Of a stretch of 64,000 nt of DNA, positions 30,014 to 39,863 are shown piece by piece. Made by a program: the position numbers and the translations under genes. The stretch is from an uncultured Nitrospiraceae bacterium (lineage in GTDB: Bacteria; Nitrospirota; Nitrospiria; Nitrospirales; Nitrospiraceae), in contig CAVPLT010000006.1 in NCBI GenBank assembly GCA_963706325.1, forward strand, positions 64,001 through 128,000. The letters are read 5' to 3'. The notes beneath the pieces are model-generated. The model saw only the letters and a list, made by a program, of their open reading frames with translations. It made no database searches and had not been told where the DNA came from. The first letter of the stretch is position 1. Each line of letters opens with the position of its first letter.

Positions 30014-30042
30014 TTGACTCTCCTTTCCCCTACGCCTATAGT
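30014..30042 (+). promoter_or_regulatory. Sigma70-type promoter candidate
   Basis: TTGACT, 17 nt, TATAGT. Confidence 0.5.
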
Positions 30043-30099: not shown

Positions 30100-30558
30100 A
30101 TGTGGGCTCTCATTCTGCCTCTTAGCTTCGTCGCGCTGCTCTTGCCGGCGTCGACAGAAGCGAAGGTCTATCGGTGCGAAGGAGCCGGCGGAACCACTAT
30201 TCTGACGGACCAGCCAAAAGGAAAACGCGGTTGCGTGGTGATGAACACGACCTCGCCGTCGCCGCCCGGCGGCTACACCCCACCAGAGGATCCCATACAG
30301 CCGGTTCAAACTGACCTACCGGCTGCCGCCATGCCTCCATCCACATCACTGATGCAGCCGCGTCAACCCATTCCAAGCGATCAGTCCATTTCGGGCGATC
30401 AGCCCATTTCGCCACCTCAGGCATCAGCGGACCCCCAGGCTCCGGCAGCCCCCGAAGCGCAACATTGCTCGCCGCGAGTAAACCCGCTCAATCCATTTGC
30501 AGGACTCAATTGCTCGCCGGCCCCAGCCAACGATACAGGCGAGAGCAAAAACCCTTAG
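30100..30558 (+). CDS. Exported DUF4124-like protein with Pro-rich tail
   Basis: Signal peptide, A-KVYRC..G....TDQP pattern. Confidence 0.7.
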   Translation: MWALILPLSFVALLLPASTEAKVYRCEGAGGTTILTDQPKGKRGCVVMNTTSPSPPGGYTPPEDPIQPVQTDLPAAAMPPSTSLMQPRQPIPSDQSISGDQPISPPQASADPQAPAAPEAQHCSPRVNPLNPFAGLNCSPAPANDTGESKNP

Positions 30559-30590: not shown

Positions 30591-30619
30591 TTGACTCTCC
30601 TGCGGTCCCTTCATATAAT
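30591..30619 (+). promoter_or_regulatory. Sigma70-type promoter for the GlmL-like operon
   Basis: TTGACT, 17 nt, TATAAT; 38 nt upstream of ATG 30658. Confidence 0.7.
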
Positions 30620-30657
30620 GCAAAATCTAACCGTTTAAGCTGATTCGACAAGCACTT

Positions 30658-31032
30658 ATGCATTTTCTCTCCGCTTCATTTTTATCCTGGCGCGCACAGG
30701 ATCTTCGAGCTGGATTCAAGCACGCCTTCGCCGTTCGCCCGGAACAACAGGACTTCACGACGGCGGACCTCGCCTTGCTCGATCGCGTCGCCCGGGCCAT
30801 TGTCACGCGTGGCATGGCGACGCCGGCCACGCTGTTTCTTGACTCCATGGGTCCGATGAATTTTCTCGGCAGCCAAGCGCTGCATTTTCTCACGCCTATC
30901 ATTGAGTGCGCCCTCAGCGGAACCGAGCTCGCGCAGATTGCCCTTTTACTGGAGCGGCGCGATTCTATTGCCCGTCTTGTCGCCCTCATCGACGCACAAT
31001 CGGCTCCTCCACCTGGAGCCTCGGCTCGATGA
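30658..31032 (+). CDS. Hypothetical protein, first gene of the GlmL-like operon
   Basis: Follows the promoter; its stop overlaps the next ATG (ATGA 31029-31032). Confidence 0.75.
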   Translation: MHFLSASFLSWRAQDLRAGFKHAFAVRPEQQDFTTADLALLDRVARAIVTRGMATPATLFLDSMGPMNFLGSQALHFLTPIIECALSGTELAQIALLLERRDSIARLVALIDAQSAPPPGASAR

Positions 31033-32876
31033 CAGTATCTCACGTCTCCGACAGGCCACGGATCGGCCGACCATTGAACGTCATCGTCGCCACCGACTGC
31101 GGCAGCACCACGACAAAGGCCATCTTGATCGAAAAGGTCGGAGACGAGTATCGCCAAACCTATCGGGGCGAAGCGCCGACGACTGTCGAAGCGCCGTTCG
31201 AAGATGTCACCCGCGGTGTGCTCAACGCCATCGCTGAAATCGAGGAGCTGTCCGGACGGACTATTCTGGATGGCGACCACATCATCACCCCCAATAAGGC
31301 GGCGCAGGGCGAGCCGAACACCGGCGTGGACATCTACGTCTCCACCAGCAGCGCCGGCGGGGGGCTGCAGATGATGGTCACCGGTGTGGTGCAAAACATG
31401 ACGGGTGAAAGCGCCCAACGAGCCGCGCTAGGCGCAGGCGCGATCGTCATCGACGTGCTGGCCTCCAACGATGGACGGCTGCCCTACGAAAAAATCGAAC
31501 GGATTCGCACCATGCGGCCCGACATGATCTTGATGTCCGGTGGAACCGACGGAGGCGCCGTGACCCATGTGGTGGAAATGGCGGAATACATTTCGGCCGC
31601 GGAGCCGCGACCACGCTTCGGCAGCACCTACCGCCTCCCCCTCGTGTTTGCCGGAAACAAAGACGCCCGACCGCAAATCAAAACGATTCTGGGCGAGAAG
31701 ACCGCGTTGGAATTCGCGGACAACATCAGGCCGGTGCTCGAGCGAGAAAATCTGACGCCCGCGCGCAACAAGATTCACGATCTATTTCTCGAACACGTCA
31801 TGCAGCAGGCGCCGGGTTACAAAAAACTCATCGATATGGCCGGTGCGCCCATCATGCCGACCCCGGCGGCGGTCGGCGTCATCATGGAGAAGATCGCCAA
31901 ACGCGAAGGCATCAACCTGATCGGCGTCGACATCGGCGGCGCCACCACCGACGTCTTCTCGGTCTTCAACGGTATGTTCAACCGCACGGTGAGCGCCAAC
32001 CTCGGCATGTCTTACAGCATCTCCAACGTGCTGGCGGAAGCCGGCCTCGACAACATCATGCGCTGGGTGCCCTTCACGATCGATGAACAAACGCTGCGCA
32101 ATCGGATCAAGAACAAGATGGTGCGGCCCACGACCATCCCGCAATCCCTCGACGAACTGCAAATCGAGCAGGCCATCGCGCGCGAGGCCTTGCGGTTGGC
32201 GTTGATTCACCATACCTCTCTCGCTACGGGGCTCAAAGGCGTCCAGCAGGAGCGCACCATTTCCGATGTGTTCGAACAGCGCACGTCCGGCAAGACCCTC
32301 ATCGACATGTTGAAATTGGATCTGATCGTCGGCAGCGGCGGCATCTTGTCGCATGCGCCGCGCCGCATTCAATCCATGCTGATGATGGTCGACGCCTATG
32401 AGCCGCTCGGCGTCACGACGCTGTCGGTCGACAGCATTTTCATGATGCCCCATCTGGGCGTCCTCTCCACCGTCAATGAACAGGCCGCCACCGACGTCTT
32501 CGTGCGCGATTGCATGGTCTACCTGGGTACCTGCATCGCCCCGATCGGACAGGGCAGGGACGGAGAGCGCTGTACGGACTATGAAATCGCGCTGCCCGAC
32601 GGACGCATCGAGAAAGGGACACTGAACTTCGGCGACCTCAAGCTATTTACTCTGACTCGAGAACAGCAGGCTCAGGTCACGCTTCAACCGATCAAACAGA
32701 TTGATCTGGGCAAGGGTCCCGGGCAATCCTTGACCAGGACCGTCCAGGGCGGCGTCGTCGGCCTGATGCTCGACGGGCGGGGTCGTCCGCTGCAAATTCC
32801 GAGCGATCAGGCGGCGCGAGCTGCAACCCTCATGCGATGGTACAAGGCGGTCGGATTGTATCCCACTGGGAGATGA
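31029..32876 (+). CDS. GlmL/MutL (glutamate mutase accessory)-like actin-fold ATPase
   Basis: TDCGSTTTK, SSAGGGL, SGGTDGG, VDIGGATTDVFS, GSGGILSH motifs. Confidence 0.85.
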   Translation: MTVSHVSDRPRIGRPLNVIVATDCGSTTTKAILIEKVGDEYRQTYRGEAPTTVEAPFEDVTRGVLNAIAEIEELSGRTILDGDHIITPNKAAQGEPNTGVDIYVSTSSAGGGLQMMVTGVVQNMTGESAQRAALGAGAIVIDVLASNDGRLPYEKIERIRTMRPDMILMSGGTDGGAVTHVVEMAEYISAAEPRPRFGSTYRLPLVFAGNKDARPQIKTILGEKTALEFADNIRPVLERENLTPARNKIHDLFLEHVMQQAPGYKKLIDMAGAPIMPTPAAVGVIMEKIAKREGINLIGVDIGGATTDVFSVFNGMFNRTVSANLGMSYSISNVLAEAGLDNIMRWVPFTIDEQTLRNRIKNKMVRPTTIPQSLDELQIEQAIAREALRLALIHHTSLATGLKGVQQERTISDVFEQRTSGKTLIDMLKLDLIVGSGGILSHAPRRIQSMLMMVDAYEPLGVTTLSVDSIFMMPHLGVLSTVNEQAATDVFVRDCMVYLGTCIAPIGQGRDGERCTDYEIALPDGRIEKGTLNFGDLKLFTLTREQQAQVTLQPIKQIDLGKGPGQSLTRTVQGGVVGLMLDGRGRPLQIPSDQAARAATLMRWYKAVGLYPTGR

Positions 32877-32910
32877 TGGGTTGCGGGTGGTAGATGTTCG
32901 TCATTTTGGA

Positions 32911-33029
32911 GGTGACTCAAAACTCTGTGCAGCGAGGCCGCAAGAGGCGAGAGTCCCGGGTCGTATCCTTGGCGGTACGGAAGGAACTTGAGCAACTGAG
33001 AACGAAGCTGCAGGGCGTTTTCAGCAATC
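32911..33029 (-). repeat. Hairpin repeat element, copy H (degenerate)
   Basis: Reverse-complemented core motifs GGCCGCA, CGTA..GTACG, GAGAACGAAG; ends CTCAAAAC / GTTTTCAG. Confidence 0.7.
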
Positions 33030-33037
33030 GGTGATTT

Positions 33038-34165
33038 ATGGCACATTCCTATACGCCCGGCCTCACGGTCGCCGAACGGACCACCGTTCGGCGTAGACGC
33101 ATCTTGCCCTTACCCGGAACGGTCCTGGTGAAGGTGGGGGACATGGTGCATGCGGATACGGTCGTCGCGCGCGCAGAATTACCCGGCAAGGTCATTCCGC
33201 TGAACCTCGCCAACCAGCTGGGCATTTCCCCGGACGAGATCAAGGACTACCTCATCAAGAAAGAACAAGACGCCGTACAAAAAGACGACGTGCTCGCCGA
33301 AAACAAACCCTTCATCAAATGGTTTAAGACTGAAGTCCGCTCGCCGATCACGGGTAGGGTGGAATCGATTTCTACCATTACCGGTCAGATCCTGCTACGG
33401 GAGCCTCCCAGGGTGCTTGAACTTCGCGGCTATATCGACGGCACTATTGCCGAGGTGCAGCCGGAGCAGGGCGTCACCGTTGAGGTTGGTTGTAGCTTGG
33501 TGCAAGGCATTTTCGGCATAGGCGGAGAGGTCAGCGGTGAATTAATCATGGGGGTGACGGCCCCGGACCAACCCTTACTGCCAGAGCAGCTGACACCATC
33601 CATGAAGGGAAAGATTGTGGTTGGAGGGGCTTTTCTGTCTGCCGCGACACTCGCACGCGCCAAAGAGATTGAGGTCGCCGGCTTGGTCGTTGGCGGCATT
33701 CACGACAAAGACCTGCGAACACTCCTCGGGTATGACCTTGGCGTAGCCATTACCGGCGCGGAGCAGGTAGGATTTACCTTGATTCTCACAGAAGGCTTCG
33801 GGACCATCCCGATGGCTCCCAAAACCTTTTCCTTGCTGTCTGCCCATGCTGGACACAAAGCGTCTATTTCAGGCGCCACCCAAATCCGCGCCGGCGTCAT
33901 TCGCCCGGAGATCATCATTCCTCAGACCTCACAGTCCGCCGGCTCCAGACCGGATCCTGTCGAACGCGAGGGGATTCAACTCGGTGATCCGGTGCGAATC
34001 ATTCGCGATCCACTGTTCGGCAAAATCGGAGCCGTGTCCGGCTTGCCACCGGAACTCAGAGCGATCCCGACCGAGAGCGAAGTCCGAGTCCTCGAAGTGC
34101 GTTTTCCCGATGGGACAAAGACCGTGGTCCCCCGCACCAACATCGAAGTGATCGAAGGAGCCTGA
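33038..34165 (+). CDS. Hypothetical protein with barrel-sandwich-hybrid-like N-terminus, swivel-like core and KOW-like C-terminus
   Basis: LVKVGDMV...VVA, EVRSPITGRVESI, GKIVVGG...GLVVGGI, GDPVRIIRDP.FGKIG.V. Confidence 0.8.
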   Translation: MAHSYTPGLTVAERTTVRRRRILPLPGTVLVKVGDMVHADTVVARAELPGKVIPLNLANQLGISPDEIKDYLIKKEQDAVQKDDVLAENKPFIKWFKTEVRSPITGRVESISTITGQILLREPPRVLELRGYIDGTIAEVQPEQGVTVEVGCSLVQGIFGIGGEVSGELIMGVTAPDQPLLPEQLTPSMKGKIVVGGAFLSAATLARAKEIEVAGLVVGGIHDKDLRTLLGYDLGVAITGAEQVGFTLILTEGFGTIPMAPKTFSLLSAHAGHKASISGATQIRAGVIRPEIIIPQTSQSAGSRPDPVEREGIQLGDPVRIIRDPLFGKIGAVSGLPPELRAIPTESEVRVLEVRFPDGTKTVVPRTNIEVIEGA

Positions 34166-34170
34166 GCCGC

Positions 34171-35418
34171 ATGCCCTCTCTTCTGCGCATGGCGCTTGTC
34201 CTCACCGCTCTATTGACACTTGCGCCGCGGCTCCTTTGTGCCCAGGCAATCCTGCCCCCTCCGCAACAGCTACAGGTATTCGATACGCCCAGCGACGGGG
34301 GAGGCAGCCTCACCGCCACCTGGGCTGCTATTCCTTCCGAGAGTGCCACGGACAAATATCAGGTGTTGATGCACGAAGGAGGAGCGCCTCCAGCCCCCAC
34401 GGGATGGAAGGTGGTCGCCGAATTTCCCGCCAACAGTCACTACGTCCGCGAAACGAAGGCCGCTTGGTGGACGAGGCCAGGGACGCCGGGCGATCACGTC
34501 TATCTTATCAAGCACGGCAAGGGCATCGAATTAAAGCCGGGCCAGTCATATGCCGTGACCGTAGCGGCTGTGACCGGTCAGGAGCGGTCTATCGCCCAGC
34601 CGGTCCTAGCATCGACGGAACCGAACTGGATGAATTGGAATCAACTGAACAATCTCATGCTGGCACTCCTGTTCGGCGGGGTAGTGTTTTACGCCATCAA
34701 TCTAGCGAAACGAAAAGACATCTTTCTGCGACGCATTCCCGGCCTCGATGCCGTCGATGAAGCGATCGGTCGCGCCACGGAATTGGGCAAACCGGTGCTC
34801 TACATGACCGGGGCGCACGATATGAACGACCCCGCAACGATTGCTGCCGCGATCATTCTGGGCCGCGTGGCCAAAAAGGCCGCCTCCTACGAAACGGAAT
34901 TGCTGGTCCCGCATCGCGAACCCATCACCATGGCCGTCTGTCAGGAGATTACGAAGCAAGCCTATATGGAAGCGGGCAAGCCGGATCTGTTCAAGGACGA
35001 CGCCAACTTTTTCATTACCAGCGACCAATTCAGTTACACCGCCGCCGTGGACGGGATCATGCTCCGCCGAAAACCGGCGGCGAATTTTTTCATGGGCTCG
35101 TACTTTGCGGAATCGCTTTTACTGACTGAAACCGGCGCGAGCACGGGGGCCATTCAAATCGCGGGAACCGACTCCGACCATCAGCTCCCGTTCTTCGTCA
35201 CCACCTGCGACTACACCCTCATCGGCGAAGAGCTCTATGCCGCCAGCGCCTATCTCTCGAAAGAGCCGATCCAGGTCGGCACCCTGCGCGGACAAGACCT
35301 TGGCAAGGCCTTCATCCTAGGCGTCATCGGCGTAGGGACAGTAGTCGCCACCATCGCCGTCGTCACCGGCGCCGCCTGGCCGCAACTTCTCCTCGACCTC
35401 TTCAAGGATCTGAAATGA
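34171..35418 (+). CDS. Membrane protein with Fn3-like N-domain and DUF6754-like domain
   Basis: Signal peptide, DTPSDGGGSL.ATW, LKPGQSY.VTV, TM helix, RRIPGLDAVDEAIGRATE.GKP, DYTLIGEELYAASAY, C-terminal TM. Confidence 0.8.
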   Translation: MPSLLRMALVLTALLTLAPRLLCAQAILPPPQQLQVFDTPSDGGGSLTATWAAIPSESATDKYQVLMHEGGAPPAPTGWKVVAEFPANSHYVRETKAAWWTRPGTPGDHVYLIKHGKGIELKPGQSYAVTVAAVTGQERSIAQPVLASTEPNWMNWNQLNNLMLALLFGGVVFYAINLAKRKDIFLRRIPGLDAVDEAIGRATELGKPVLYMTGAHDMNDPATIAAAIILGRVAKKAASYETELLVPHREPITMAVCQEITKQAYMEAGKPDLFKDDANFFITSDQFSYTAAVDGIMLRRKPAANFFMGSYFAESLLLTETGASTGAIQIAGTDSDHQLPFFVTTCDYTLIGEELYAASAYLSKEPIQVGTLRGQDLGKAFILGVIGVGTVVATIAVVTGAAWPQLLLDLFKDLK

Positions 35419-36065
35419 TTTTTCTTCGCCGGCAGTTGCCGCTGCTCATTACGATGGTGACCGGATTAGTCATGGCCGCGCAATACTACGTGCCCCACCC
35501 GGCTTCAGAGCAACTCCTCACCACCGTCACCAAATGGCTCCAGATCATCGGTGGGTTCGCGCTCGTTCTTGGCATTACCAGCCTGTTCCATGTGCATGCC
35601 GCGAAAATCCGGCGCAAGGAAGCGGGCTGGGGGTACAGCCTGGTGCTCTATGCCGGCATGCTCGGCACCACCGTGGTGGGGCTTTGGAACGGCGGGAAAG
35701 AAAGTATCGAGGGAGCCATGACGTCGTTCGGCTGGGTCTACTCCTATACCCTCGTGCCGCTGCAAGGCACCATGTTCGCCATTCTGGCGTTCTTCATCGC
35801 CTCTGCGGCTTATCGCTCGTTTCGCGCCCGCAGCCGGGAAGCCGCCGTGTTATTGATCGCCGCGGTGATCGTCATGATGGGCCGGGTTCCGCTGGGTGAA
35901 TACCTCCTGCCCATCAGCGGCGACTTATCGAGTTGGATTTTGAATGTGTTGAACGCGTCCGTCCGGCGCGCCATTTTGATCGGAGTCAGCCTGGGGGCCG
36001 TGGCCCTCTCGTTCAAGATCATCTTCGGCGTGGAACGGTCGTACCTGGGCGGCGGCAAGGAATAG
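35415..36065 (+). CDS. Polytopic membrane protein
   Basis: About six hydrophobic segments; FFIASAAYRSFR; ATGA overlap with the upstream gene. Confidence 0.85.
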   Translation: MIFLRRQLPLLITMVTGLVMAAQYYVPHPASEQLLTTVTKWLQIIGGFALVLGITSLFHVHAAKIRRKEAGWGYSLVLYAGMLGTTVVGLWNGGKESIEGAMTSFGWVYSYTLVPLQGTMFAILAFFIASAAYRSFRARSREAAVLLIAAVIVMMGRVPLGEYLLPISGDLSSWILNVLNASVRRAILIGVSLGAVALSFKIIFGVERSYLGGGKE

Positions 36066-36069
36066 TCCG

Positions 36070-36915
36070 ATGAGTTTCGCTGAGCGCATGTTACGGATCG
36101 ACCGGCGGATCATCTTTCTGGTGATCGGGCTTTGCACGCTGTTCCCCCTGTTATTTCCGGTGGGATTGCCCATCCGGATTTCATCTGAGGTTCGGGGCGT
36201 CTACGACTACATCGACAATTTGCCTGAAGGGTCCGTCTTTCTACTGTCCCTGGATTTCGACCCAGCCTCGAAACCTGAGCTTTATCCCCAGGCCATCGCG
36301 ATTTTACGCCATGCTTTCCACAAGAACTTGCGAGTCGTCGCCATGACGCTGTGGGTATCCGGAACTGGGCTGGCCGACCAGATCGTGTCCCAAACCGCCA
36401 AGGAGGCAGGCAAGGAAAACGGCAAGGACTACGTATTCCTGGGCTGGAGCCCAGGCGGCAGCGCCGTTATTTTGAATATGGGGCAAGACTTGTACAATGC
36501 GTTCCCAACCGACTATGGGAACAGGTCCACGAAAGGCCTTCCCGTCCTGGCCGGCGTGCAGAGCCTACGGGATGTGACCTATGCCGTGAGTCTCGGCGCG
36601 GGCAATCCAGGAGTCGAAGCCTGGTACGTCTTCGGCAAGGACAAGTATAAGTTCGAACTTGGCGGCGGCTGTACCGGCGTCATGGCGCCTGGCCTCTATC
36701 CGTTGTTGCGGAGCGGGCAGATCAACGGACTGATCGGCGGCCTGCGCGGGGCGGCAGAGTATGAAACGCTCATTGGCCAGAAGGGCAAGGCCGTCGCCGG
36801 AATGGACGCCCAATCGGCCACCCACCTCGCCATTATCGTGCTCGTGACGATTTGCAATATTTTTTACTTTACGGTGCGGCGGCAACAGCGCCGGCAGGAA
36901 CAGATGGGATCGTAG
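36070..36915 (+). CDS. Membrane protein with central soluble domain
   Basis: N- and C-terminal TMs; DFDPASKPEL.PQ, GKDYVFLG, GLIGGLRGAAEYE. Confidence 0.85.
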   Translation: MSFAERMLRIDRRIIFLVIGLCTLFPLLFPVGLPIRISSEVRGVYDYIDNLPEGSVFLLSLDFDPASKPELYPQAIAILRHAFHKNLRVVAMTLWVSGTGLADQIVSQTAKEAGKENGKDYVFLGWSPGGSAVILNMGQDLYNAFPTDYGNRSTKGLPVLAGVQSLRDVTYAVSLGAGNPGVEAWYVFGKDKYKFELGGGCTGVMAPGLYPLLRSGQINGLIGGLRGAAEYETLIGQKGKAVAGMDAQSATHLAIIVLVTICNIFYFTVRRQQRRQEQMGS

Positions 36916-36920
36916 GCGCT

Positions 36921-37676
36921 ATGGATCTTCCGTTTGAAGTCATACTCGGCGGGTGGCTCGCCACAGGATTGACTCTCTTCATCCTGTCGTTCCTGTATGA
37001 GGACAATCCGTTGTTTAAACTCGCCGAGCATCTATACGTCGGCGTCTCGCTAGGCTACACGATCGTCAAAACCTATGACACGGTTGTCATGACCCTGATC
37101 CTGCGTCCCATCCTCGACAAGGGAGAATGGTCGTTGCTGATTCCTGTCGCCATCGGTACCCTGATGTTGACGCGATATGTCCCCAAAGCCGCCTGGCTCT
37201 CGCGTTATGCCTTTTCCTTCATTGTCGGCGTCGGAGCAGGGCTGGCGATTCCCCGGACGATCTCCTCGTTCATTTTGAAACAAATTGAGGATACGGTTCG
37301 TCCGCTGCTGACCATTGTGCCGGGGGAGGGCGTCACCTTCACCTATTCACTGCTGAACCCTGCCAGCAATTTGAATGGAATCATCATCCTGATCGGCGTG
37401 GTGTCGGTTCTCTTCTACTTCTTTTTCTCGGTTGAACATTCCGGCCCAGGGAAAATGGTCGCACGGGCGGGGATCGTGTTTTTGATGATCTCGTTCGGAG
37501 CGGCCTTCGGCTACACCGTCATGGCCCGCATGTCCCTCCTGATCGGCCGGCTCACGGACCTGATTGAATTCTCCGACGCCTCCTACAGCCGTCCCACGCT
37601 CTGGCTCACGCTGCTCACCATCGCCACACTGTTTCTATTGAGCCGACGCGGCGGCGCCCATCCGCCGGAACGCTAG
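36921..37676 (+). CDS. Polytopic membrane protein
   Basis: SFLYEDNPLFKLAEHLYVG, FGAAFGYTVMARMS; about seven hydrophobic segments. Confidence 0.85.
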   Translation: MDLPFEVILGGWLATGLTLFILSFLYEDNPLFKLAEHLYVGVSLGYTIVKTYDTVVMTLILRPILDKGEWSLLIPVAIGTLMLTRYVPKAAWLSRYAFSFIVGVGAGLAIPRTISSFILKQIEDTVRPLLTIVPGEGVTFTYSLLNPASNLNGIIILIGVVSVLFYFFFSVEHSGPGKMVARAGIVFLMISFGAAFGYTVMARMSLLIGRLTDLIEFSDASYSRPTLWLTLLTIATLFLLSRRGGAHPPER

Positions 37677-37721
37677 TCCAGCCTAGACCGCTGGCATGAA
37701 ACCCGTTTCCGGCAATGTCTT

Positions 37722-37887
37722 CGGAAGGTTCAAAATTTGGTCCGGCAAGGCCGCAGCGAATGTAGAACTGAGGCGTACCCTTCTTACCTCCCGTTCGCGC
37801 CTGCTGAGACAGGCTCTTTTCCGTGGCGGTACGTTGCGCCCTAATGACGGGTAAACAAAGCGGGGCGGCTTTTTCAATATCCTGTTA
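37722..37887 (-). repeat. Hairpin repeat element, copy G (long variant)
   Basis: GGCCGCAGCG, GAGGCGTAC...GTACGTTG; ends TTCAAAA / TTTTTCAA; insert matches copy B. Confidence 0.8.
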
Positions 37888-37891
37888 CCAG

Positions 37892-37921
37892 TTGCACAGC
37901 GGAAGTTGGCTTCGTTAGAAT
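37892..37921 (+). promoter_or_regulatory. Sigma70-type promoter candidate for amrB
   Basis: TTGCAC, 18 nt, TAGAAT; would imply a very short leader before ATG 37932. Confidence 0.4.
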
Positions 37922-37931
37922 GCCCCTCATT

Positions 37932-39182
37932 ATGGAATCAACCACGACCATCGCCGCCAAAGATCCCGCGCAGTATCCGCTGCTACGCAACCTTCAATTT
38001 TCACCGATCAAGGAAGGGGAAGAGCAGTACGTCGTGCTCTGGGACCCGACCGGCTTGAGCAAGGAACGACTGGTCCTGCCGTTGAATTATTTTTTCATCG
38101 TGCAGCATCTGGACGGCGAACATACCCTGCAGGACATCGGCGCCATCTATCTGAAACGGTTCGGCGAATTCCTCATGCCGAATAAAGTCGAGCAATTGCT
38201 CGCCGATCTGAATACCAAATTATTCTTGGAGGGGGAGCGGACCGAACAGGCCAAACAACAGGCCCTGGAGACCTATCGCCAAGCCCCTTCTAGGCCTCCT
38301 CAGTTTGCCGGCCGGAGTTATGAAGCCGACGCCGCCAAGCTTCGCGCCCAGATCAAGGGGTTCTTTACCTCGAAGGAAGGACCGGAGATCAAAGCGTCCG
38401 AACATGCGGGCAAACCCATCAAGGGCCTTGTCGCACCGACCTACGAACTCAAGCATGCGGGTCCGATCTATGCCTGGGCTTATAAGGAGCTGCAGGAAGC
38501 TCAGCAACCGGACCTGTACGTCCTTATCGGCACCGCCCATTCCGGGCTGGAACAATTGGTCACTGTGACCGACAAAGACTTCGAAACCCCCCTGGGAATC
38601 GTCAAGGTTGAACGAAGCATCACCGATCAGCTGCGCGAGCAGATTCCTTCCGCCTTCACCGAAGAACTGGCACACCAAAATGAACATGCATTGGAATTTC
38701 AGCTGCCATTCCTGCAGGAGAGCCTCGGCCAAGAGAAGCCCTTCACGATTGTCCCGATCCTTACCTCGTTTTCAGCGGATAGCCTGCGCGATCCGCAAAT
38801 CCGGGCACAGGTCGAGACGTTTCTTCAGACATTGAAAGAGGCGTTGTCCGCGTCCGGCAAACAATATTGCGTCCTCGTTGGAGCGGAACTGGCCCATATC
38901 GGTATGCGCTACGGCGATTCGGCTCCCCCGACCGATTTTTCGTTTCACCGTTGCATGCAAACCGATCTCGAAATGCTCAAACATGTCGAGAACCGCGACC
39001 CGGAAGAATTCGCCAAATTCATTCAAAAAGAAAGCGATCAGCGTCGTATCTCCGGCTTCTCACCGATCTACTCGTTGCTGCGTTTGATTCAGGCCGAAAC
39101 CGGGCAGGTGTTACGTTACGACCGCGGCATTACCGATCAGTACAATTCGACGGTGACATATGCCAGCATGGCCTTCTTCTGA
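37932..39182 (+). CDS. amrB: AmmeMemoRadiSam protein B (MEMO1 family) with N-terminal extension
   Basis: R.P.FAG.SY, IGTAH, FETPLG, EHALEFQLPFLQ, IVPIL, ELAH.G.RYGD, VTYASM. Confidence 0.88.
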   Translation: MESTTTIAAKDPAQYPLLRNLQFSPIKEGEEQYVVLWDPTGLSKERLVLPLNYFFIVQHLDGEHTLQDIGAIYLKRFGEFLMPNKVEQLLADLNTKLFLEGERTEQAKQQALETYRQAPSRPPQFAGRSYEADAAKLRAQIKGFFTSKEGPEIKASEHAGKPIKGLVAPTYELKHAGPIYAWAYKELQEAQQPDLYVLIGTAHSGLEQLVTVTDKDFETPLGIVKVERSITDQLREQIPSAFTEELAHQNEHALEFQLPFLQESLGQEKPFTIVPILTSFSADSLRDPQIRAQVETFLQTLKEALSASGKQYCVLVGAELAHIGMRYGDSAPPTDFSFHRCMQTDLEMLKHVENRDPEEFAKFIQKESDQRRISGFSPIYSLLRLIQAETGQVLRYDRGITDQYNSTVTYASMAFF

Positions 39183-39595: not shown

Positions 39596-39720
39596 GCAGG
39601 CTGTTGAAACAGCACCCACCTTCGTTCTCGACTCATCAAAATTCTCAACGTACCTCAAAGGGTACGCCTCCGGTTTTGTCTTCCCTGCGGCCTCGGTAGA
39701 CGGCTTTTTGAGCAGCCTGC
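39596..39720 (+). repeat. Hairpin repeat element, copy D
   Basis: Ends GCAGGCTGTTGAAA / TTTGAGCAGCCTGC; CGTTCTCG, CTCAACGTACC..GGTACGCCTC, CTGCGGCCT. Confidence 0.9.
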
Positions 39721-39863
39721 GCAAATCACCACAGACATTGCCGGCGTCGTTCGCTCCTCAACAAAACCATCGTTAGTCACTCTCATCTCGTCTCGTCAGA
39801 AGAACCTTCACAAAGTACATTTCACATCTTACGGTTGACCTCTCACGCTCCACCGGACATGTC

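Follow-up and report, generated by a model that had tools for sequence, protein, structure and literature searches.

A conserved seven-gene operon of Nitrospiraceae with a GlmL/MutL-family ATPase and four membrane proteins: a putative ATP-driven transporter

The window, a stretch of 64,000 nt on contig CAVPLT010000006.1 in the 96 % complete genome of an uncultured Nitrospiraceae bacterium (GCA_963706325.1), contained an operon of about 7 kb at positions 30591..37676. Seven open reading frames (ORFs), all in the same orientation on the forward strand and here named A to G, were headed by a sigma-70-type promoter, TTGACT-17-TATAAT (30591..30619, forward strand), with 11 of 12 consensus positions. 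Gene A (30658..31032) encodes a helical protein of 124 aa affiliated to no known family, B (31029..32876; 615 aa counted from the ATG) a long-form GlmL/MutL-family protein, which is a predicted ATPase of the ASKHA (actin/Hsp70-fold) type, and C (33038..34165, 375 aa) a protein in which barrel-sandwich-hybrid repeats are combined with a domain that is likely of the swivelling β/β/α type and, at the C-terminus, with a KOW domain. Four membrane proteins follow: D (34171..35418, 415 aa) comprises a signal peptide, an Fn3 domain and a six-stranded Rossmann domain (DUF6754) between two transmembrane (TM) helices, E (35415..36065, 216 aa) six TM helices in a predicted N-in orientation, F (36070..36915, 281 aa) a six-stranded Rossmann domain, predicted to be periplasmic, between two TM helices, and G (36921..37676, 251 aa) a core of six TM helices, seven in Nitrospira, predicted as N-out. 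The gene set is real and new in its architecture; its function as a transporter is putative.

The reading frames of A/B and D/E overlap in ATGA motifs at 31029 and 35415, and C/D, E/F and F/G are separated by 5, 4 and 5 nt; the sole long gap, 161 nt, lies between B and C. The coordinates thus confirm the tight co-oriented arrangement described in an earlier note on this DNA. That note had also placed a near-consensus promoter at the head of the operon. A promoter scan alone yielded three sites against 4.0 expected, which is chance level. The 11-of-12 site recurred 21-42 nt upstream of A in 29 of 32 Nitrospirota loci, in support of the assignment, and a site scoring at least 10/12 was present in 31 of the 43 loci examined and in none of 43 control stretches inside B.

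Sampling of the host family Nitrospiraceae detected DUF6754 in 45 of 46 genomes, against one of the 204 genomes from the rest of the phylum. Among 201 Planctomycetota genomes, which include kin and are not independent, 54 carried D and B, two D only, three B only and 142 neither; B and D occurred together in 54 of the 59 genomes having either one. D was present at least twice in 17 of the 56 D-positive planctomycete genomes, ten of these with one B: D-E-F-G is often a block duplicating beside one ATPase. Within the best 80 of 621 loci, the order A-B-C-D-E-F-G was found in records titled Nitrospira, Binatia, Scalindua and Phycisphaerae/Planctomycetota, A-G with an insertion in an Elusimicrobiota record, and D-E-F-G alone in WOR-3, Edwardsbacteria and Eisenbacteria. 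The system is present in anammox bacteria. A set of 127 loci, in which some genomes appear twice and many loci are broken at contig ends, had the exact order ABCDEFG 46 times and DEFG 21 times; permutations included ADEFG, ADEFGB and CD. The seven genes make up a conserved set, co-inherited in several bacterial phyla, in support of the earlier note.

The protein B matched PF13941 (GlmL/MutL) with an E value of 3e-127 and retains the ASKHA motifs DCGSTTTK, DIGGATTD and GSGG, and its assignment to this actin-fold family stands. About 115 residues are outside the PF13941 region, and the scores were below the curated cut-offs of NF040745 (229.9 vs 475), NF040744 (203.5 vs 600) and TIGR01319 (156.9 vs 204.05). 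B shared 27-31 % identity over the core with GlmL proteins of annotated records, two of them encoded between glmS and glmE, and 61-64 % with those aligned orthologues that were most distant from it. A quickly computed tree of 40 rows (24 long-form B, ten B' paralogues, six GlmL/Or-4-like proteins) placed the 24 long-form proteins on one side of a branch with a Shimodaira-Hasegawa-like approximate likelihood ratio test (SH-aLRT) value of 94; the deep order of the tree is unsure because the branches are long. Two B rows titled Enterobacteriaceae (L045) and Desulfuromonadaceae (L107) grouped with Binatia and WOR-3-type rows, and these labels may be wrong. One genome with the full system additionally encodes a strongly divergent PF13941 protein accompanied by a distant homologue of C (L150:9048-11941).

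MutL/GlmL is reported as a chaperone for the reactivation of glutamate mutase (PMC4682846). The source genome has neither a glutamate mutase E nor a methylmalonyl-CoA mutase, and an aminomutase was not matched there in a search run without a positive control. B12-binding domains, reported earlier as absent from the window, were absent from the whole contig and had 11 matches elsewhere in the genome. An ORF of 309 aa with such a domain (G000:C1:595268-595582) is shorter than the other B12-binding matches. GlmE exceeded its cut-off in none of 44 D-carrying genomes, with a control that itself matched only below the cut-off, and PF13941 exceeded its cut-off in 42 of these 44 genomes, chosen for carrying D. 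Hence the co-occurrence of the genes across phyla is uncoupled from glutamate mutase, the outcome anticipated in the earlier note. Sub-cut-off GlmE matches were obtained in nine of the 44 genomes; the one checked was a methylmalonyl-CoA mutase, therefore some carriers own a B12 mutase elsewhere.

Among the soluble partners, A adjoins B in most loci and D in three (L190, L191, L212), and is likely an adaptor. C showed domain matches to RnfC_N (53), Biotin_lipoyl (38) and KOW (13) among 112 members, and its profile retrieved 1020 clusters at E<=1e-30. The centre of C has a weak match (E 0.096) to RraA, which has a swivelling fold; a swivelling β/β/α domain is likely, if weakly indicated. Full B-C fusions are encoded in some genomes (P0385, P0446). 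Neither a His nor a Lys is conserved in C: H222 occurred in 15 of 146 rows and H3 in 23 of 78, K90 in 60 of 144 and K74 in 47 of 142. The lack of a conserved His argues against a phosphotransferase-system-like group translocation, which the earlier note had listed among the possible functions, and the lack of a conserved Lys against a lipoyl carrier. C was also considered as a biotinyl/lipoyl carrier and rejected, as the invariant hairpin-tip Lys is absent. Two more clades of B'-C' pairs or fusions were encountered (L144:5200-8169, L145:7146-9893, L146:7242-9803, L147:7462-10080, L195-L200), with a duplicated barrel-sandwich region, no KOW domain and no D-G genes in the stretch retrieved; they represent a second unstudied system.

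Family-averaged hydropathy revealed two TM helices in D besides the signal peptide, six in E, two in F and six in G with a seventh in Nitrospira, in sum 16-17 and close to the 17 first estimated. The Fn3-like extracytoplasmic domain seen at that stage was confirmed in D by a structure model, and the Rossmann domain of D is predicted to be cytoplasmic; the Fn3 extensions vary and are extracytoplasmic, and D reaches up to 1272 aa in all. The large Rossmann domains of D and F had been overlooked. In the models, both proteins have the same layout of helix, six-stranded Rossmann domain and helix, with the domains predicted on opposite faces of the membrane, that of D inside and that of F outside. 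The six-helix proteins E and G likewise look oppositely oriented in the predictions, N-in and N-out. Many polar residues of the D domain are invariant and lie at the ends of strands (Q286, E314, T333, Q338, E353, E354). C346 of D is 99 % conserved and is located just before strand 6 in the model, not after strand 1, and the Cys of the EIIB layout follows strand 1. Conserved polar residues are also present in E (Arg in cytoplasmic loops), F (His252 and Asn263 in the second TM helix) and G (Glu36, Arg203, Arg210). In B, C, E, F and G, no Cys was conserved at the 90 % level, and no cobalamin-binding or iron-sulfur (Fe-S) motif was seen in D-G. A consistent Pfam match was lacking across 45 E and 48 G members, E and G had no sequence match in the PDB, and the searches matched the membrane proteins to no known transporter family, in agreement with the earlier note. 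In some E homologues (L179:12230-14071, L183:12473-14311, L190, L191), the TM3-TM4 loop, predicted to be on the outer side, contains inserts of 100-350 aa that belong to no known family.

The flanks of the operon hold dispersed repeats and variable genes. The B/C gap is occupied by a degenerate dispersed repeat of about 120-130 nt (32900..33032, unstranded), as had been noticed before, which is outside the system; nhmmer, used without a shuffled control, found 33 other copies in the genome at E<=0.01 and 48 at E<1, blastn only two. A second repeat outside the system, 3' of G (37700..37895, unstranded), had 26 other matches at E<=0.01. Together with a third at about 39603-39724, these elements are degenerate, 120-190 nt long and similar to repetitive extragenic palindromes or miniature inverted-repeat transposable elements, with dozens of intergenic copies in the genome; two of the elements have some genomic matches in common. 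A promoter-like sequence, TTGACT-17-TATAGT (30014-30042), lies 5' of a DUF4124 gene at 30100 and has 12 nt in common with the operon promoter. A gene for a PqqD-like plus Memo/AmmeMemoRadiSam B protein (37920-39182) is located 3' of G in many Nitrospira loci (seven of the clustered loci).

The neighbouring genes vary between loci. gcvPB was at most 52 nt from A in eight loci, mostly of WOR-3 and likely kin, the genes for pyruvate dehydrogenase (PDH) E2 and lipA were within about 2 kb of A in eight Nitrospirota loci, and a fusion of serine hydroxymethyltransferase (SHMT) and GcvT was encoded 237 nt 5' of C in one planctomycete. The 1517-aa ORF L186:12698-17248 (minus strand), directly 5' of C-D-E-F-G, fuses SHMT and GcvT domains. 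Family-5 binding proteins or Opp ATPases adjoin the membrane block in four loci. These neighbours are leads to a substrate, not evidence of it; the substrate is possibly linked to amino-acid or lipoate metabolism.

A membrane complex with a non-ABC ATPase, as suggested by the earlier note, agrees with the conserved gene set, with the absence of an ABC_tran match and with the lack of a known transporter family; of its more specific proposals, a transporter is the reading that fits best, although its chances stay somewhat below even. An ion-translocating module in the form of a redox-driven ion pump is unlikely because E, F and G lack a conserved Cys. We tentatively propose, from the sequences, that A-G encode an undescribed ATP-driven importer, and for this we infer transport, ATP hydrolysis and the contact of B and C with the membrane proteins. 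The four membrane proteins would form a unit of two oppositely oriented halves, and B, predicted to be an ATPase of the actin/Hsp70 fold, would power it together with C and A. The outer domain of F may capture or gate a solute, E and G may provide its path, and the very conserved inner domain of D could be the docking site for B-C, which would exert an ATP-driven conformational force on D, in the way of reactivase-type ASKHA proteins acting on their clients. That the direction is import is a guess, and so is the nature of the solute (amino acid, small peptide or lipoate-type molecule). A primary transporter is the best fit because of the single, fusable and highly conserved energiser, the duplicating membrane block, the opposed halves of like shape and the polar residues in helices. 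With slightly more reserve, the system may represent a new class of primary active transporters, in which an ASKHA ATPase and a swivel/KOW partner power exchangeable D-E-F-G modules; these would derive from an inverted duplication and carry a Rossmann domain on each face of the membrane as mirror images. This class would be core in Nitrospiraceae and would also be common in Planctomycetota, in WOR-3 and in further phyla that have been little studied, maybe supplying lipoate or glycine to lipoate-dependent enzymes.

Several observations weigh against this proposal. Homology of D to F and of E to G was not shown by sequence profiles, and the local D-F score was equalled in 12 of 60 shuffles; the twin halves thus rest on models of a very common fold, which cover D and F. 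VIA matches tie with short-chain dehydrogenases/reductases and sirtuins, and the topology signal is weak for the first TM helix of F and for G. In many cases B, C and DEFG lie apart from each other, each at its own locus. Near-universal presence in the chemolithoautotrophic Nitrospiraceae and presence in anammox bacteria are a poor fit to a peptide or amino-acid importer. Concerning the substrate, a promoter of its own stands before A also in loci with a preceding lipA, gcvP of the source genome is on another contig, and the context clues come from few of the 127 loci, among kin. The sole role reported for the family of B is chaperone-like enzyme reactivation, not transport (PMC4682846).

This role leads to the main rival explanation, with D-E-F-G as a membrane enzyme or cofactor complex and B-C, perhaps with A, as its ATP-dependent reactivase or assembly chaperone in a split version of the dehydratase-reactivase design. 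The alpha subunit of glycerol dehydratase reactivase combines an Hsp70-like ATPase domain with a swivelling one and acts through a swap of subunits (PMC7674605); the weak RraA match of C would provide the counterpart, a swivel predicted from sequence. The invariant polar residues of the D domain could make an active site, and the KOW-less B'-C' paralogues occur away from membrane genes. However, D-G lack cobalamin-binding and Fe-S motifs, the source genome lacks glutamate and methylmalonyl-CoA mutases, and a single reactivase could serve several client blocks in tandem, but this would be expected less readily, so that we regard this explanation as unlikely, with perhaps a chance of one in four or five. 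A housekeeping envelope machine powered by B, which would flip, extract or export a lipid-linked or protein substrate, appears less probable again. Near-universal presence in the host family, the conserved near-consensus promoter, the high identity of B to its most distant aligned orthologues, the variable extracytoplasmic extensions of D and the diderm nature of the lineages in the record titles were counted for it; the patchy presence in Planctomycetota (56/201), the occurrence in only one other sampled Nitrospirota family and the lack of recurring envelope-biogenesis neighbours count against it.

Another alternative is a gated channel for ions or a sensor spanning the membrane: an E/G pore would be controlled by RCK-like domains at either face, and B-C would act by remodelling the gate or by passing on the signal. 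This is improbable: the RCK matches tie with unrelated Rossmann folds, a GxGxxG motif after strand 1 and a TrkH/KtrB match are missing, and the genes show no linkage to a regulator. The position next to gcvPB, SHMT-GcvT or E2-lipA in three lineages and the lipoyl-like domains of C would also suit an accessory of lipoate-dependent enzymes (glycine cleavage, PDH) instead of an importer, e.g., one that recycles or repairs lipoyl domains at the membrane. Such neighbours are missing from most loci and from the flanking genes scanned in the window, and C lacks the conserved Lys; this is the most improbable of the explanations considered.

The system fits none of the families tested, and literature searches, which had most subscription papers and all supplements outside their scope, found no paper on it. 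New here are the common fold of D and F with predicted opposite orientation, the conservation of the promoter and the finding that C is not a carrier of the phospho-His or lipoyl type. The known drivers of ATP-dependent solute transport are ABC, P-type and rotary ATPases, and to our knowledge no ASKHA-powered transporter has been described. If the proposal is true, it adds a new membrane biochemistry to organisms of the nitrogen cycle, the nitrite-oxidizing and comammox Nitrospiraceae and the anammox bacteria. Labels such as 'glutamate mutase L' and 'fibronectin III protein' mask the system and can yield false calls of glutamate fermentation. The operon of 7 kb is self-contained and expressible in a laboratory host.

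Among known systems, the RCK domains of Ktr/Trk and MT0777 (1kjn) have a Rossmann-type fold, as do the domains of D and F, but identity is 6-12 %, a dinucleotide motif is absent, and the D and F domains are flanked by TM anchors on both sides, with one of the two domains predicted as extracytoplasmic. Rnf and Nqr have RnfC_N/NqrA_N-like barrel-sandwich domains as in C, and RnfA/E and NqrD/E are two six-helix subunits of opposite orientation; A-G differ in the absence of flavin and Fe-S motifs, of a conserved Cys in E or G and of a family match. ATP-binding cassette (ABC) and energy-coupling factor (ECF) importers likewise combine a soluble ATPase module with a membrane block, and in ECF systems several membrane blocks can use one energiser. 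B is an ASKHA protein and not a P-loop ABC ATPase, without ABC_tran matches in A-G or matches to TMD, EcfT or S-component families. The glycerol and diol dehydratase reactivases GdrAB/DdrAB pair an Hsp70-like ATPase with a swivelling domain (PMC7674605), and B with C may form the same pair; there is no sequence match to their solved structures, and the apparent client of B-C is a membrane complex. Closest are GlmL/MutL of glutamate/methylaspartate mutase operons and Or-4 of ornithine aminomutase clusters, which have the ASKHA family and the nucleotide motifs in common with B. In contrast to these, B is about 150 residues longer, forms its own branch (SH-aLRT 94) below the curated cut-offs, and has no adjoining mutase, but is inherited with C and four membrane proteins.

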